A DNA stretch of 47,884 nucleotides from sequence record OM258170; one strand, written 5' to 3'. Source of the stretch: Escherichia phage ZL19. A program made the translations under genes and the position numbers. Positions 1,549 to 37,133 of this stretch are shown here, one piece after another; position 1 is the first letter of the stretch, and each line of letters opens with the position of its first letter. Below the pieces are notes generated by a model, which was not told where the DNA came from, did no database searches, and worked only from the letters and a program-made list of their open reading frames with translations.

Positions 1549-2001
1549 ATGAGAAAGGTAGATGAATTAATAATAATGATAAGTAGGCAAACGGATGATT
1601 GTATAGAGTGGAATAACTCAAGGACCGTTGATGGATATGGCCAGGTAAGATATGCTGGAACAACTAGAAGGGCGCACAAAGTAGCTTACTGCATAAGCAA
1701 TGATATAGATTATGAATGCGTAAAAGGTGTAATAATGCATTCATGCGATAATCCTTCTTGCATTAATCCAAAGCACCTATCGGTAGGTAGTCAGCATGAT
1801 AACGTGATTGATTGCGTATCAAAGGGCAGGTTCCGAAGCGTTGAGGGGCTTAAGAACCCGAAGTCAATAGTAACCATCGAAGACTCAAGAAAGATGTTAA
1901 GAATGAGAACTGATGGCATGACCTATCAGGATATAGCTGACGCAATGGTCGTTGGCAAAAGCACAGCATACAGAGTGATAACTACAGGATACTTACTATG
2001 A
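1549..2001 (+). CDS. HNH homing endonuclease
   Basis: HNH-type His/Asn/Cys motifs (HSCDNPSCINPKHL, GSQHDN); start uncertain. Confidence 0.55.
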   Translation: MRKVDELIIMISRQTDDCIEWNNSRTVDGYGQVRYAGTTRRAHKVAYCISNDIDYECVKGVIMHSCDNPSCINPKHLSVGSQHDNVIDCVSKGRFRSVEGLKNPKSIVTIEDSRKMLRMRTDGMTYQDIADAMVVGKSTAYRVITTGYLL

Positions 2002-3768: not shown

Positions 3769-4086
3769 ATGAAAGATCTTAGAATGTTTACTGTTTTTGT
3801 TGCAGTGGATGATGTTGATGGCGAAAATTCATTCTTTGTTTTCGAGCACGAAAAAGTAGCGGAATGGGAAAGATACTATTCTTATGTTGTTTTACCTGTA
3901 TCCGTGTTTGAAGGTCAATATATAATCGATAAGATAGGTAAGTTAAAGGAATACATCATGAAGGAAAAGAAATGCGAATGGCCTGAGATCAACAAGAGGA
4001 AAAGAATGAACGATATGGTTAATCCAATAATGGTTTGCTCATTTGCTATTGATGAATCTAAAAGTGATGATGGGGTAAAAAGATGA
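3769..4086 (+). CDS. hypothetical protein (105 aa)
   Basis: Track ORF 3745..4086 starts at TTG; ATG 3769 has GAGGA RBS. Confidence 0.45.
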   Translation: MKDLRMFTVFVAVDDVDGENSFFVFEHEKVAEWERYYSYVVLPVSVFEGQYIIDKIGKLKEYIMKEKKCEWPEINKRKRMNDMVNPIMVCSFAIDESKSDDGVKR

Positions 4087-4122
4087 ATAGCGACCAAATA
4101 TTTGACATGATGATGAGTCAAT

Positions 4123-4329
4123 GTGAAGAGGTTGGTAAAAAAAATGGCAATGCGATTCCACCAATCAGAACCCAAGCTCCAGGCCAACCACTTCGACGGC
4201 TACGCGACATTCATCATTGCCCAGGCTTGCGGGATGCGTGACGAGCCACAGGTTCACACCATCCACTTAACAGAAGAACAGGCTCGAGAGTTGGCCTACG
4301 AAATTCTAGAGCAATTGAACCGAATTTAA
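4123..4329 (+). CDS. hypothetical protein (start uncertain: GTG 4123 or ATG 4144)
   Basis: Protein-like frame; a competing 52-codon frame from ATG 4083 is Pro/Arg-rich and looks non-coding. Confidence 0.35.
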   Translation: MKRLVKKMAMRFHQSEPKLQANHFDGYATFIIAQACGMRDEPQVHTIHLTEEQARELAYEILEQLNRI

Positions 4330-5422: not shown

Positions 5423-5500
5423 GCTCTGCTAGCTCAACAGGATAGCAGCAACGACCTTCTAAGTCGTAGGTTACTGGTTCGAATCCAGTGCGGAGCGCCA
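5423..5500 (+). tRNA. tRNA-Arg (anticodon UCU), CCA encoded
   Basis: 7-bp acceptor stem GCTCTGC/GCGGAGC, anticodon stem ACGAC/GTCGT with loop CTTCTAA, T-arm ACTGG-TTCGAAT-CCAGT, GG in D-loop; D-arm atypical (3-bp stem, long loop). Confidence 0.7.
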
Positions 5501-21421: not shown

Positions 21422-21445
21422 AAAAGGCCCCGAAAGGGGCCAAAA
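21422..21445. terminator. bidirectional terminator
   Basis: GGCCCC-GAAA-GGGGCC hairpin flanked by A-run and T-rich sequence, between convergent genes. Confidence 0.6.
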
Positions 21446-21943
21446 TTACCATCCAAGAGTTAACTGTGCTTCCTTGTAAAGGTTCTCCATTTCTTCTTTC
21501 CGCTGCTTCTTGACCCTCTTCCACTCAGATAGTGTCTTTCCGCAACTGCTAGCAATCTCAACCTCTGACTTTAACGTTCCGATTAACTCATTGCATTTCT
21601 GCATTACTGATTTATTTTCTTCTTTATACTCCTCTTTAAGAATTCGCTCCATTTCGTTAAAAGCATTAATGTAAGCTTCCTTCCACTTTGCTGCCTCCTT
21701 TCCGGTAAAGCCCATTGCTAGGAATGAGAAACCATCACGTGTAATGTCATAGCAATCTAACTTCTTGTTTTGCTTGGAAATATAAGATGAGGGCCGAAAA
21801 TTAGGCTCTCTAAATTCTTCGCTACAATCAAGTCCTCGAATAGCATCAAGCACGTGCTTGTGCGACTTACCAAACTTTTCTGAAACATCCTTTGATGTGA
21901 CTGTAATGCGACCATCTTTGCCTAAAGATACTAAATCGTTCAT
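21446..21943 (-). CDS. Rha-family phage regulatory protein
   Basis: N-terminal ITVTSKDVSEKFGKSHKHVLDAIRGL matches Rha domain pattern; track ORF trimmed to ATG with AGGTAGG RBS. Confidence 0.6.
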   Translation of the reverse strand: MNDLVSLGKDGRITVTSKDVSEKFGKSHKHVLDAIRGLDCSEEFREPNFRPSSYISKQNKKLDCYDITRDGFSFLAMGFTGKEAAKWKEAYINAFNEMERILKEEYKEENKSVMQKCNELIGTLKSEVEIASSCGKTLSEWKRVKKQRKEEMENLYKEAQLTLGW

Positions 21944-22039
21944 AATATACCTACCTGGTGAGTTGATTATTTGTTTATGGAGATTCAAATATAAAACTCC
22001 TAATAGGATTTGTCAAATCTTAAAATCATAGAGGTGAAG

Positions 22040-23408: not shown

Positions 23409-23897
23409 ATGCAAAAATTCGAGAATTACCTTTACGAGATTGATGGAAAGCTATACTGGAAGGAGGCGAGAAACAACTCGGCCAAAATAGAGTCAGAGGC
23501 TGGATTTATTCATCATTCTGGCTATAGGTATGTTAAATTGAATGACAAACAGACTTCATCTCACAGGATTCTTTGGTACTTAAGAAATGGATTCAAGATG
23601 CCACCTAAAGGCATGGAGATTGACCATATAAATGGAAACAGGCTTGACAACTCAGCTAGTAACTTACGGATTGTATCTTCATCGGTAAACTCAAAAAACA
23701 GGTCAAAAAGGTCAGATAACTCAAGCGGCGTTGCGGGAGTTGGATTTCATAAGTTAACTGGAACGTGGTGGGCTACGATATCAATAAACAAAAAGAGAAA
23801 GCACTTGGGGCTATTCGTTGATTGGTTTGAAGCAGTGTGCGCCAGAAAGAGCGCTGAGAACTTAAATGGTGAGTACACCTATAGACATGGTAAGTAA
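23409..23897 (+). CDS. HNH homing endonuclease with AP2-like domain
   Basis: EIDHINGNRLDNSASNLR HNH motif plus GVAGVGFHKLTGTWWATI AP2-like segment; free-standing between I-like and J-like genes. Confidence 0.65.
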   Translation: MQKFENYLYEIDGKLYWKEARNNSAKIESEAGFIHHSGYRYVKLNDKQTSSHRILWYLRNGFKMPPKGMEIDHINGNRLDNSASNLRIVSSSVNSKNRSKRSDNSSGVAGVGFHKLTGTWWATISINKKRKHLGLFVDWFEAVCARKSAENLNGEYTYRHGK

Positions 23898-28504: not shown

Positions 28505-28528
28505 ATAAGGCCCTTAATGGGCCTTCTT
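28505..28528. terminator. bidirectional terminator
   Basis: AGGCCC-TTAAT-GGGCCT hairpin between convergent genes. Confidence 0.5.
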
Positions 28529-28699
28529 GTTAAAACAATATCCAGCTGGTAAAACCGAATAAAGATTTTGATTTACCTCTCCATTGCTGTATTCACAACC
28601 TCTAATTGTAACTGAGTAGTCACTGATAAGAACTATAGTTCTTTCACCGCCTGAACAACCAGCTAAAATCATTGCAGTGATAACGATTAATTTTTTCAT
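28514..28699 (-). CDS. small lipoprotein (Cor/Llp-like superinfection-exclusion candidate)
   Basis: Signal peptide with lipobox LAGC, 61 aa, located beside tail fibre genes. Confidence 0.45.
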   Translation of the reverse strand: MKKLIVITAMILAGCSGGERTIVLISDYSVTIRGCEYSNGEVNQNLYSVLPAGYCFNKKAH

Positions 28700-28700
28700 C

Positions 28701-28805
28701 TTAGAACCCTTTAAAGTTGCTAGCCAGCATCAGAAGCCATACGAAGAAACCAGTAGCTGCTACACCGAAGATTGCAGAGATTACGTTAGTAGTTAAGTTA
28801 GTCAT
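28701..28805 (-). CDS. small hydrophobic membrane peptide (34 aa)
   Basis: ATG with AAGGA RBS; stop abuts lipoprotein start; single predicted TM; below track cutoff. Confidence 0.35.
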   Translation of the reverse strand: MTNLTTNVISAIFGVAATGFFVWLLMLASNFKGF

Positions 28806-28826
28806 TTTGTATTCCTTAGTAAGTGT

Positions 28827-28866
28827 GTTTCGTTTCGATGGAAAGATAATACCGCATCCTTGCGAT
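28827..28866 (-). repeat. 40-bp perfect repeat (promoter -10 plus leader), copy A
   Basis: Identical to 46447-46486. Confidence 0.8.
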
Positions 28867-28888
28867 AAGTGTTTAGCAATTAGTGCTA
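28846..28888 (-). promoter_or_regulatory. palindrome-type promoter module (minus strand)
   Basis: Motif TAGCACTAATTGCTA on minus strand, -10 TATTAT 37 bp downstream, leader CCATCGAAACGAAAC. Confidence 0.5.
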
Positions 28889-29158
28889 TTAGTGAATATC
28901 CTCACAGCCAGGAATGGACTTAACATTGTAATGCCGATAAGCGAATATCAAGTTAAGAGCCTGCTCGACCGTGCATTTAAGGGCGCCAGAGATAATAAAT
29001 GAAGACTCAGTGATGTGATTTATTAACTCATTTCTGACAGGGTCGTCATCTGCTAGTAACTCTGCGCGCTTAACAAAAAGAGCGTTGTTTACCAGGATTG
29101 TCACAACCTTTTCATTGAGCTCTTTCTTCGCTTTTGCAATCTCTTTCTCGTAGTTCAT
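28889..29158 (-). CDS. hypothetical protein (89 aa)
   Basis: ORF with AAGGCGG RBS. Confidence 0.4.
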   Translation of the reverse strand: MNYEKEIAKAKKELNEKVVTILVNNALFVKRAELLADDDPVRNELINHITESSFIISGALKCTVEQALNLIFAYRHYNVKSIPGCEDIH

Positions 29159-29300
29159 CTTATACCGCCTTGTTTTCGATTTGCATTACGCTATTAACTG
29201 ACATCATAACATTCCGATTCTGCTGCTGAGTAGTGGTTACTACATGCTGCATTTTATTGCAGTCACTTTAAATGACCACATCTTATTGTGGTCATTAGTG

Positions 29301-29948
29301 CTACTTATCTTTAAGTAGCAACTTGATATCAATTCCTAGATTATTCTCAATCAATCCAGTCAGTGCACCTACCTTTTCCTTAAGCGCGAAGCATTGCGAT
29401 TCATACTTAAATCTTTCCTCCATCTCATCAGAACGACTAACCCAACACTGGCGAGCCTCACAAGCCAACATGTCGAGTTTTTCATCGGTATTCTTATCCA
29501 TGAGTAAGATCTCATTTATCCTTTGCTCTGCAACAATGCGCTGACTCAGGTGTGCATTTTGCGCATTAGCCACACCAAGCATCATGCGCGCTTCTTTTAA
29601 CTCATCAATGCTTACCATCTTACTGATTACTTCTTCTTGTTTTTTGACTAACGCCTCAAGTTCATGAAGTCGACGGATAACCCTGTGACGAAGAACGACG
29701 CTATAGCCAGTTATTAGCGTTTCTGTAAGTTCCTTGTTAAGTAAAATCTCTGATGTATAGCCGCGATTGTCCGTAAGTACTTGATAATCATCATGACCCA
29801 AATCTGGGGCATCGTTATAATGTAACAATTCATTGATCATTTCCTTTGTGTCGCGAACGACGTGATCATGACGCTTACCTGTCAATTCAGCAATTTCCTT
29901 CGTGCTCATCATGGTTTTTGGCTGTTCTTTGTACGCCTCAATGTTCAT
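29301..29948 (-). CDS. Rha-family regulatory protein with coiled-coil C-terminus
   Basis: MSTKEIAELTGKRHDHVVRDTKEMI matches Rha pattern; track ORF trimmed to ATG with AAGAGAGA RBS. Confidence 0.55.
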   Translation of the reverse strand: MNIEAYKEQPKTMMSTKEIAELTGKRHDHVVRDTKEMINELLHYNDAPDLGHDDYQVLTDNRGYTSEILLNKELTETLITGYSVVLRHRVIRRLHELEALVKKQEEVISKMVSIDELKEARMMLGVANAQNAHLSQRIVAEQRINEILLMDKNTDEKLDMLACEARQCWVSRSDEMEERFKYESQCFALKEKVGALTGLIENNLGIDIKLLLKDK

Positions 29949-30052
29949 TTTAGTCTCTCTTATGTTTTTCATGTCTCAGATTTTAGCCATCGTTTGGTTT
30001 TGGTCTATCGATTTTCGGTAGACCAAGCAGCACCATTGCCGCCATGCGCCTA

Positions 30053-30095
30053 AATATACCCAAAGATAGCTAGTTGTCTTTAGCAATTGGTGCTA
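30053..30095 (-). promoter_or_regulatory. palindrome-type promoter module (minus strand) for Rha gene
   Basis: Motif TAGCACCAATTGCTA on minus strand, -10 TATATT at 30053-30058. Confidence 0.5.
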
Positions 30096-30122
30096 TTTAT
30101 CGCCAATTCCACCATAAATCAC

Positions 30123-30215
30123 AGTTACACGTAACCGATGTAACTCGATGTATACAATCTCATCCGCGGAAAATGATATACGCACTGTTACGCCAATTTA
30201 CGCATTAGTTACATT
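30123..30215. repeat. GTTAC(A/G)C iteron-like repeats including palindrome GTTACACGTAAC
   Basis: Several GTTACGC/TTTACGC/GTTACAT copies in non-coding DNA. Confidence 0.5.
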
Positions 30216-30220
30216 AAAAT

Positions 30221-30270
30221 ATCTATATATATCAACCTTTTACTCTTATTATTATTATTATATATATTAC
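30221..30270. repeat. (TA)n and (ATT)n microsatellite, AT-rich
   Basis: ATCTATATATAT and 5x ATT then TATATAT. Confidence 0.8.
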
Positions 30271-30409
30271 TGTGTATATCATGTAACTACTTCTATAGAG
30301 TGTTTCGGTTATAATTTTAATATAATGTGGATTTATACAGTATTGCGTGGCAGCTATACCAATGCACCCCGCAAGGAATGGTATACACGATATACACACT
30401 GGTTACATT

Positions 30410-30434
30410 GAGCTATAGCTGGGCTGAGATGCCA
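30410..30434. repeat. conserved 25-bp box with AGCTATAGCT palindrome (copy 2)
   Basis: GAGCTATAGCTGGGCTGAGATGCCA, 24/25 identical to 285-309. Confidence 0.8.
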
Positions 30435-30514
30435 AAAAACGTAACTAGCGGCAATACCTACACGGAATTACAAAGATTCACGCGTAAGTCTGAATCAACG
30501 ATTGGCAAAACCAA

Positions 30515-30544
30515 TTGGACTGGCTACGGTGCCGAATATATAGT
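30515..30544 (+). promoter_or_regulatory. sigma70-like promoter TTGGAC-18-TATAGT
   Basis: Followed by TACCACATCGAAAG leader and RBS of gene 30582. Confidence 0.5.
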
Positions 30545-30581
30545 TACCACATCGAAAGCAAACAACCAGAGAGATAAATAA

Positions 30582-35557: not shown

Positions 35558-35602
35558 TAGCACGAATTGCTAAAGTGGATTGTAGCATCTTTCAGGTATA
35601 AA
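35558..35602 (+). promoter_or_regulatory. palindrome-type module in plus orientation, function ambiguous
   Basis: TAGCACGAATTGCTA 35558-35572 with TATAAA at 35597-35602; no plus-strand gene downstream; 25 nt upstream of tailspike ATG on minus strand. Confidence 0.35.
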
Positions 35603-36604: not shown

Positions 36605-37078
36605 TTACTCTTTAGCTTTTCGTGCTGCCTCGTTGGCGGCCTTAATCTTACGCCATGATCGACACTCTGGCTTGGTGGCTAATTCAGCTTCGGTAACCAC
36701 GCGCAGCATATGACGCTTTTTGCAACGTAGTGTAAGAGGCTTGCCGTTACCGTCGAATTGCAGGTCTGGTCGGCAGAATGTAGCTCGAAAACCTTCTCCG
36801 GTTCGTTTGTAGTAGTTGTGCGACAGCTGAGCACCACGCGCAGAAATCATACCACGATTGAACCATTCTTCTACAGTTTGGGGAGTTACCTTTAACTGCT
36901 TTGCGATGTTTGCCTTTGTTCCGAAGAAATCAAGGAGCATCTCAAGCCGTGCGCGTAACCCTGCCCTTACCTCGTCTTTTAAAACGTAGTAGCCTGAAGG
37001 TCGTTTCCGTTGTTTTTTGTCTTCAGTGCGGATGGTTCCGTTATTACCGTTAGTGGTTCGCTTGTCAACTGCACTCAT
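36605..37078 (-). CDS. HTH DNA-binding protein (putative regulator)
   Basis: Basic protein with helix-turn-helix-like IAKQLKVTPQTVEEWFNRG; ATG with GAGGT RBS; divergent from helicase. Confidence 0.5.
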   Translation of the reverse strand: MSAVDKRTTNGNNGTIRTEDKKQRKRPSGYYVLKDEVRAGLRARLEMLLDFFGTKANIAKQLKVTPQTVEEWFNRGMISARGAQLSHNYYKRTGEGFRATFCRPDLQFDGNGKPLTLRCKKRHMLRVVTEAELATKPECRSWRKIKAANEAARKAKE

Positions 37079-37091
37079 TTTGTTACCTCGA

Positions 37092-37133
37092 TAGCATTTT
37101 TTGTTAAAAGTCATTCTTATTTGATGGTAGTAT
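37092..37133 (+). promoter_or_regulatory. palindrome-type promoter module (variant) for helicase
   Basis: TAGCATTTTTTGTTA 37092-37106, -10 TAGTAT 37128-37133. Confidence 0.45.

Follow-up and report, generated by a model that had tools for sequence, protein, structure and literature searches.

Accessory Rha-superfamily genes of the Rtp-like Escherichia phage ZL19 and their genomic settings

Why would a phage that appears to lack any lysogeny module carry two genes of the Rha family, whose members are usually tied to lysogeny control? The question is raised by Escherichia phage ZL19 (sequence record OM258170), whose 47,884-nucleotide sequence is the window analyzed here. Two open reading frames (ORFs) on its minus strand, called Rha#1 and Rha#2 below, are transcribed against the neighboring genes; Rha#1 lies between the tail genes L and K, and Rha#2 heads a leftward block farther along the genome (Table 1). 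We lean, with modest confidence, towards the reading that both are functional, dispensable and independently acquired accessory genes for DNA-binding proteins of the Rha superfamily, that they modulate targets outside the phage core, and that Rha#1 is expressed early and is autoregulated. On this reading, both genes stand outside the core transcription program, do not read the promoter palindrome of these phages and are unrelated to lysogeny. They are optional add-ons that have already been annotated, and in this respect the finding is largely ordinary.

Rha-type proteins in a lytic coliphage

The window is an essentially complete genome of an Rtp-like coliphage (Drexlerviridae, Braunvirinae, Rtpvirus). 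It is approximately 98–98.5% identical to vB_EcoS-IME253 (IME253 below), approximately 98% identical to Rao1 and 89–91% identical to Rtp. The genes run in the order tape measure, M, L, Rha#1, K, I, an HNH gene, J, two genes of the receptor-binding locus, the leftward block, exonuclease VIII, Erf and SSB. Pfam scans of the ORFs that have no counterpart in Rtp or IME253 revealed neither an integrase nor a CI-type repressor, and the full annotations of these two phages list neither; the scans did not take in every ORF of the window. Within that scope, the absence of both reported in a preliminary description of this DNA is upheld. Apart from the Rha proteins, one helix-turn-helix protein was seen, a conserved homologue of T1 gp23 and rtp52 encoded at 36605..37114(−).

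The same description implied that Rha genes in a virulent phage are a surprise. This does not hold, since Rha-domain genes are common in virulent phages: they are present in ICP1, in many Drexlerviridae and, as N-terminal domains resembling that of Rha#2, in 164 Salmonella phage records, including those of SE2 and wksl3, which we take to be virulent Jersey-type siphophages. Nor is a location in the late region unusual for the family, whose type gene in phi80 has been described as a late-operon gene. The strictly lytic phage ICP1 carries its Rha-domain gene next to a CRISPR-Cas locus, divergent from its neighbors, and a regulatory role has been suggested for it there (PMC8263062). Its genome context is unrelated to that of ZL19, and the N-terminal domains are just ~41% identical. 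Literature searches on Rha in Drexlerviridae and on the transcriptomes of T1-like phages found nothing specific.

Both proteins contain the Rha-type signature (TSKDVSEKFGKSHKHV and TKEIAELTGKRHDHV), and homologues of Rha#1 show no or almost no variation in its G-K-x-H core. The two minus-strand Rha ORFs had been proposed from this signature; their coordinates are right, and the search with Pfam hidden Markov models (HMMs) places both above the gathering score. Rha#1 matches Phage_pRha (PF09669) with an E-value of 1.3e-31 and 109.4 bits (cut-off 29.9), NCBIfam TIGR02681 with 92.4 bits (cut-off 45.95), Pfam ORF11CD3 at 1.5e-8 and PHROG 518, "Rha-like transcriptional regulator", at 4e-57. Rha#2 passes PF09669 marginally (1.8e-8, 35.2 bits), stays below the TIGR02681 cut-off with 17.1 bits and matches PHROG 8235, "anti-repressor", from end to end (5e-86). 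Measured against the family as defined by PF09669, TIGR02681 and the rha type genes of phi80 and P22, Rha#1 thus exceeds both cut-offs and Rha#2 that of Pfam only; on these profile scores Rha#2 is a distant, superfamily-level relative only. The phenotype that defines Rha is inhibition of phage growth in IHF-deficient hosts. The genes of ZL19 differ from the type members in that the phage is virulent and in their C-terminal parts, which are an ORF11CD3 tail in Rha#1 and, in Rha#2, another helical tail that Drexlerviridae relatives also have.

Related genes carry public annotations, as "Rha-like transcriptional regulator" (IME253 gp55), "Rha protein" (Rao1 gp31) and "anti-repressor" (EC3a gp45). 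At least 575 matches to the Rha N-terminal domain family occur in bacterial genomes of many phyla, all of them with ≤63% identity. In a scan of IMG/VR for near relatives of Rha#1, the only matches were IME253 and proteins distantly related in the N-terminal domain.

The preliminary description had treated the two genes as a pair. The stretch over which Rha#1 and Rha#2 can be aligned is just 18 residues (E 0.004), so they are not duplicates of one another, and each is present or absent independently of the other in close relatives. Their predicted architectures are nevertheless alike. In AlphaFold2 models derived from homologue alignments, the N-terminal part of both proteins is a confident α/β domain, with a predicted local distance difference test score (pLDDT) of ~90, and of >90 over amino acids 11–100 of Rha#1. 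In both, long C-terminal helices follow at lower confidence, consistent with a coiled-coil oligomerization part. Searches of the sequences of PDB chains with both proteins gave nothing meaningful.

The domain content bears on the possibility that Rha#1 and Rha#2 are true anti-repressors, which would inactivate CI-type repressors of prophages or satellites, or repressor-like host factors, without binding DNA. Names point in this direction: PHROG families matched by both proteins are called "anti-repressor" or "anti-repressor Ant", and in RefSeq the EC3a and IME253 homologues of Rha#2 bear the label "anti-repressor". In addition, distant relatives of Rha#2 in Pseudomonas and Acinetobacter join the Rha domain to KilAC. 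The likeness to the Ant/KilAC anti-repressors (P22 Ant and the Rha plus KilAC proteins of Pseudomonas prophages) extends to a related N-terminal domain and to separate transcription as an accessory gene. However, the KilAC/ANT domain (PF03374) and the AntA domain are absent from both proteins in Pfam and NCBIfam searches, their C-terminal parts are long helices instead, and no repressor of the phage's own was found among the scanned ORFs of the window or in annotated relatives. The names are annotation transfers, and the label is not supported by the domain content, since KilAC/ANT is missing. We therefore consider a true anti-repressor function unlikely.

The Rha#1 cassette and the L/K junction

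Rha#1 and its signals fill the space between L and K as a cassette (Table 1). The upstream TTG at 21988, from which Rao1 is annotated as encoding a protein of 180 amino acids, was rejected as the start codon, since the −10 hexamer of the Rha#1 promoter overlaps it; the start is taken to be the ATG at 21943, which is preceded by AGGTAGGT. When read on the plus strand, the hairpin of the Rha#1 terminator is followed by AAAAUUACC and therefore should not halt rightward transcription from L to K. The G+C content of the cassette (21422..22039) is 38.7%, against 44.5% in L, K and the genome.

In lambdoid phages, a moron as defined by the Hendrix group has its own promoter and its own terminator, lies between genes that are adjacent in relatives and deviates in composition. 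Rha#1 shows all four of these features and is a textbook moron. Classical morons are expressed from a repressed prophage, whereas the virulent phage that carries Rha#1 allows the cassette to act in lytic infection only. The earlier statement that each of the two genes is flanked by a terminator or promoter of its own is borne out: Rha#1 has both, and Rha#2 has a palindrome-type promoter and a weak hairpin.

The junction itself varies among relatives. In EC3a (Guelphvirus) the slot is empty, with L and K 10 bp apart; in P817 (Nouzillyvirus) the start codon of K overlaps the stop codon of L; and T1 has overlapping L and K genes. A free-standing HNH_3 endonuclease gene on the plus strand, behind a palindrome-type promoter, fills the slot in Rtp (rtp40) and JulesPiccard (bas03_0025). 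Its left boundary is the stop codon of L, exactly as for the Rha#1 cassette, and its distribution is likewise patchy. Rha#1 differs from these genes in its opposite orientation, in lacking a nuclease domain and in having a sigma-70 promoter rather than one of the palindrome type. Among 784 phage records that match L and K, four, representing three phages, carry Rha in the slot; the junctions that were sized in sampled rows of this survey are mostly empty, with other small ORFs in a few. The 3′ end of L and the 5′ end of K are strongly conserved at the DNA level, and no target-site duplication is visible at the insert. The L/K junction is thus a recurrent landing site for unrelated cargo, namely the Rha cassette, HNH genes and small ORFs. 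HNH genes occur at other tail-gene junctions as well. In the window, 23409–23897 (+) is a free-standing HNH_3 gene between I and J, which adjoin in EC3a and Rtp; IME253 has an extra HNH gene between the tape measure gene and M that is not present in the window.

Exact-protein look-ups recovered further cassettes in the same slot. Homologues that are 84%, 81% and 61% identical to Rha#1 all lie between L and K in the same orientation, on contigs (L008, L010 and L030) whose tail proteins are just 36–83% identical to those of the window and whose nearest isolates are ESCO41-like and P817-like phages. The content of the slot varies within at least three lineages, as seen in the window against EC3a, in L010 against P817 and in the ESCO41-like L008; P817 and L010 are 87% identical in DNA, yet P817 is without the cassette. 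The faithfulness of the Rha cassette to this junction across several Drexlerviridae lineages, in a slot shared with HNH genes, is a modestly new observation.

The four cassettes (window, L008, L010 and L030) have in common the TTGACA promoter, the leader TGAATCTCCAnAnACAAA, the ribosome-binding site and the hairpin terminator. Between Rha#1 and its same-slot homologues, the proportion of nonsynonymous differences (pN) is 0.08–0.28 and that of silent differences (pS) is 0.63–0.77. With silent sites saturated and pN low, the protein has evidently been under purifying selection. The promoter and leader are 72–92% identical between cassettes, and third codon positions of the gene only 43–55%, which shows constraint on the non-coding part as well. 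Identity of the gene does not follow that of its surroundings: between the window and L030 the flanks are 66–83% and the Rha genes 81% identical, and between the window and L008 the values are 45–69% and 84%. These identities suggest either that lineages exchanged the gene long ago or that constraint is unequal. A recent horizontal transfer between the window and L008 was rejected, as the silent sites are saturated (pS 0.75), which leaves room for an old transfer or for differential constraint.

Several of these observations would also be expected if Rha#1 were mainly a selfish passenger, specific to the L/K junction, that spreads by recombination in mixed infections with little benefit to the phage, possibly because a filled site is immune to the HNH endonucleases aimed at the empty one. 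HNH_3 genes occupy the junction in Rtp and JulesPiccard, the cassette comes and goes inside at least three lineages and is carried by 4 of the 784 isolate records, Rha and flank identities are incongruent, and the ends of L and K that border the slot are highly conserved DNA. Yet no nuclease, integrase or transposase domain was found in Rha#1 by Pfam and NCBIfam searches, the insertion has left no target-site duplication, and the combination of saturated silent sites with a conserved protein and promoter indicates long-term selection on the product. A mainly selfish passenger therefore seems improbable to us.

A possible source of the cassette is suggested by homologues outside the slot. Siphophage contigs and an E. 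coli prophage that carries an integrase gene encode proteins with the same two-domain architecture (Rha plus ORF11CD3) and 53–56% identity to Rha#1; the genes for these proteins open rightward replication operons. They are followed by a gene for a replisome-organizer-like protein and then by one for DnaB or a DnaC-like loader. Their promoter, TTGCAA-17-TATATT, is flanked by ATGCAAA/TTTGCAT, and the promoter of the cassette resembles it, including an AGGAG element in the spacer and TTTG(C/A)AT after the −10 hexamer. Unlike these genes, which open an early operon, Rha#1 is an isolated cassette in a tail operon. Rha#1 is most likely a captured early regulator, because its promoter and leader exceed silent codon positions in conservation and resemble the early promoters of the ~55% identical homologues. 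From these likenesses we infer that the promoter and gene may have been captured jointly from an early replication module and that the protein may autoregulate. In three metagenomic siphophage contigs (L012, L031 and L032), repeated ATGCAAA/TTTGCAT motifs lie ~130 nt upstream of the Rha homologue and are candidate operators for the Rha plus ORF11CD3 subfamily; the divergent operons of these contigs have no repressor gene between them.

The company of these homologues could also mean that Rha#1 assists replication or recombination as an accessory factor, such as a DNA-binding protein associated with the origin or with a replisome organizer. The ~55% identical homologues stand directly upstream of the replisome-organizer-like and DnaB/DnaC-like genes, and in the Stx "Eru" phages the genes for Rha proteins adjoin cI in the replication region (PMC8951638). 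In ZL19, however, Rha#1 lies far away from the genes for primase and helicase, and most Drexlerviridae replicate without it, which makes such a role very unlikely.

Rha#2, its operon and the promoter palindrome

Rha#2 is the first gene of the leftward block, between the tail and receptor-binding genes and the recombination genes. The preliminary description had placed both genes inside the late-gene region. This is correct for Rha#1, at the boundary of the tail genes L and K, and incorrect for Rha#2, which heads a conserved leftward accessory operon outside the late genes. The arrangement of the block recurs in EC3a, CY1 and AugustePiccard and is absent from Rtp, JulesPiccard and T1; CY1 and AugustePiccard likewise have an ORF of 86–89 amino acids behind the Rha#2-type gene. 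Farther downstream, the block comprises a second palindrome promoter, a membrane ORF and a Cor-like lipoprotein gene (Table 1).

Rha#2 is modular. Its C-terminal ~115 amino acids are conserved in Drexlerviridae, joined to an N-terminal domain that is either of the Rha type or an unrelated domain without a Pfam match. IME253 and CY1 retain the C-terminal ~115 amino acids and have a non-Rha N-terminal domain at this locus. Despite a genome identity of ~98.5%, the window and IME253 thus differ by a swap of the N-terminal domain at 29648–29942 (compared with L002 10027–10692), close to the domain boundary. This suggests that the swap point is a recombination hot spot within the gene, and the exchange of this domain between near-identical phages is modestly new. 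Upstream of the Rha#2 operon, an unusually long (~600 bp) divergent intergenic region at 29973–30581 separates it from the rightward recombination genes. The region contains an AT-rich stretch with (TAA)n-like runs at ~30240–30290; no convincing gene was seen before ~30360, and no palindrome promoter in plus orientation.

The palindrome TAGCA-N5-TGCTA occurs in 11 strict copies in the window, against 0.08 expected by chance. It forms part of a larger element in which ATAGCACnnnTTGCTAAA precedes a −10-like hexamer at a distance of ~22 nt, with a conserved leader, CATCGAAACGA, after the hexamer; the center of the palindrome lies near −42. This is a typical position for a class II activator site. 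Rtp and T1 have 10 strict copies each (14–16 when relaxed) at equivalent positions. The repeat has been published for the T1-like phages TLS, T1, Rtp and Rogue1 (PMC11447400). One further feature of its distribution concerns the copy at 35558–35572, which lies between the start of the lateral tail-fiber gene and the end of the primase gene and points into primase antisense. It is directly followed by a terminator-like hairpin (AAAAAACCTCCCGAAGGAGGTT), the same arrangement is found in Rtp, and the copy looks orphan or differently used.

Rha#1 and Rha#2 had been put forward as binders of this palindrome. One copy does lie upstream of Rha#2, and both proteins, as modeled, are probably dimeric DNA binders. 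There is, however, no palindrome near Rha#1, and IME253 has a non-Rha N-terminal domain at the position of Rha#2. Profile HMM searches of Rtp and T1 in any frame (E ≤10) detected no ORF of the Rha#1 or Rha#2 type, and the window and IME253, as positive controls, were detected. Because Rtp and T1 keep 10 copies each in the absence of any Rha ORF, Rha is not a general reader of the palindrome, and the report of the repeat across TLS, T1, Rtp and Rogue1 tells against the proposal as well. That the two proteins recognize the promoter palindrome is therefore extremely unlikely. Their removal as candidates means that the reader of the ATAGCAC-N3-TTGCTA repeats should be sought among the proteins shared by all T1-like phages, of which the gp23/rtp52 homologue is an example and a better candidate, or in the host.

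Table 1. Coordinates of the two Rha genes, their signals and the promoter palindromes in the window
Feature	Position	Strand	Description
Inserted cassette	21422..22039		~620 bp, between L stop (21421) and K start (22040)
Rha#1 terminator (intrinsic)	21426..21441	−	GGCCCC-TTTC-GGGGCC (GGCCCCTTTCGGGGCC), then T6; −14.5 kcal/mol; 5 nt past the stop codon
Rha#1 coding sequence	21446..21943	−	165 amino acids; Rha domain 15–100, ORF11CD3 helical domain 112–163
Rha#1 leader	21944..21987	−	Conserved TGAATCTCCAnAnACAAA; ribosome-binding site AGGTAGGT
Rha#1 promoter	21988..22016	−	TTGACA-17-TATATT; 11/12 matches; top sigma-70 consensus match of the whole window
Terminator of leftward block	28507–28525	−	End of the distal leftward block (28507..28888)
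Cor-like lipoprotein	28514–28699	−	Distal leftward block
Membrane ORF	28701–28805	−	34 amino acids; distal leftward block
Second palindrome promoter	28874–28888	−	Distal leftward block
ORF downstream of Rha#2	28889..29158	−	89 amino acids; no family match
Hairpin just past Rha#2 stop	29272..29295	−	−16.8 kcal/mol, z −5.4, then only UUU; weak terminator or attenuator
Rha#2 coding sequence	29301..29948	−	215 amino acids; divergent Rha-type N-terminal domain 14–98, helical C-terminal domain seen in Drexlerviridae relatives
Rha#2 operon promoter region	30053..30095	−	Palindrome TAGCACCAATTGCTA at 30081–30095; −10-like TATATT at 30058–30053
Palindrome copies (15-nt sites)	2914, 3695, 8215, 16236, 28874, 30081, 31747, 35558, 39593, 46494, 47681		Oriented ATAGCACnnnTTGCTAAA

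Proposed function and further features of the genome

Both genes are most likely dispensable, since the L/K slot is empty or filled with an HNH gene in relatives and Rha#2 is missing from Rtp, JulesPiccard and T1. A transcription regulator or interference factor, as first proposed for them, remains the most reasonable reading for Rha-superfamily genes in a phage without a lysogeny module. Under the accessory-regulator reading that we favor, each protein would combine a compact winged-helix-like N-terminal domain with a long helical, probably dimerizing, C-terminal part. The near-consensus sigma-70 promoter of Rha#1 would be read by unmodified host RNA polymerase upon DNA entry, and the leftward transcript would end at the terminator before reaching L. 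Later, rightward transcription of the tail operon would cross the cassette antisense and may dampen expression of Rha#1, which would most likely be an autoregulated early DNA-binding regulator captured from a replication module. Rha#2 would be expressed from its promoter of the ATAGCAC-N3-TTGCTA type as the first gene of an operon ending in the Cor-like lipoprotein, predicted to act in superinfection exclusion. Both proteins could then modulate the transcription of non-core targets in the host, in resident prophages or in co-infecting phages.

Several points weigh against this reading. DNA binding by Rha#1 and Rha#2 is deduced from family membership and from the models, and a fold search of the PDB gave no significant match, the best being MarR- and MerR-like winged-helix proteins at E ≥0.6. 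The early timing of Rha#1 depends on the order of genome entry and on a promoter strength predicted from sequence. When the conserved leader motif of Rha#1 was used to look for possible targets elsewhere in the window, the original was the only copy returned. Candidate operator repeats near Rha#1 are weak, with poor conservation in L010; they are ATTTGNA-like and include an 18-nt direct repeat with copies 28 bp apart. The label "anti-repressor" that PHROG and RefSeq attach to relatives also has to be counted here.

A bolder proposal is that Rha#1 is a weapon. The Cro-position regulator and its cognate promoter, captured from a family of siphophages or prophages, would form an immediate-early cassette whose protein would silence or mis-time, in trans, the early promoters of resident or co-infecting phages of that family; the cassette would at the same time fill, and thereby immunize, the junction targeted by HNH endonucleases of rival T1-like phages. 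If so, the cassette would be a nuclease-free, site-faithful module of competition between phages. We regard this as quite doubtful.

Matches to Rha or "anti-repressor" families commonly serve as markers of a temperate lifestyle in the screening of phages for therapy. Such matches alone should not disqualify a phage, since they are found here in strictly lytic Drexlerviridae in which no integrase or repressor was found. The L/K junction offers a convenient natural system for studying the movement of accessory genes among lytic phages, and the small, self-contained Rha cassettes are an easy entry point to the function of the Rha family.

The remaining observations concern other parts of the genome. 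PADLOC defense models gave no match. A tRNA-Arg gene (anticodon TCT) at 5423–5500 (+) is the single match of Rfam and ARAGORN in the window; such a gene has been reported for other T1-like phages. Two segments of the early region, 1–1214 and 3775–4148, have no DNA match in Rtp or IME253; these early-region segments encode a DUF7174 protein (400–888) and several small ORFs without a family match. The first gene of the window is preceded by a 10/12 match to the sigma-70 promoter at 349–377. Also in the early region, and again without a DNA match in Rtp or IME253, the ORF at 1549–2001 (+) has a weak His-Me-finger match and a C-terminal helix-turn-helix, and is a free-standing gene of the homing-endonuclease-like kind.

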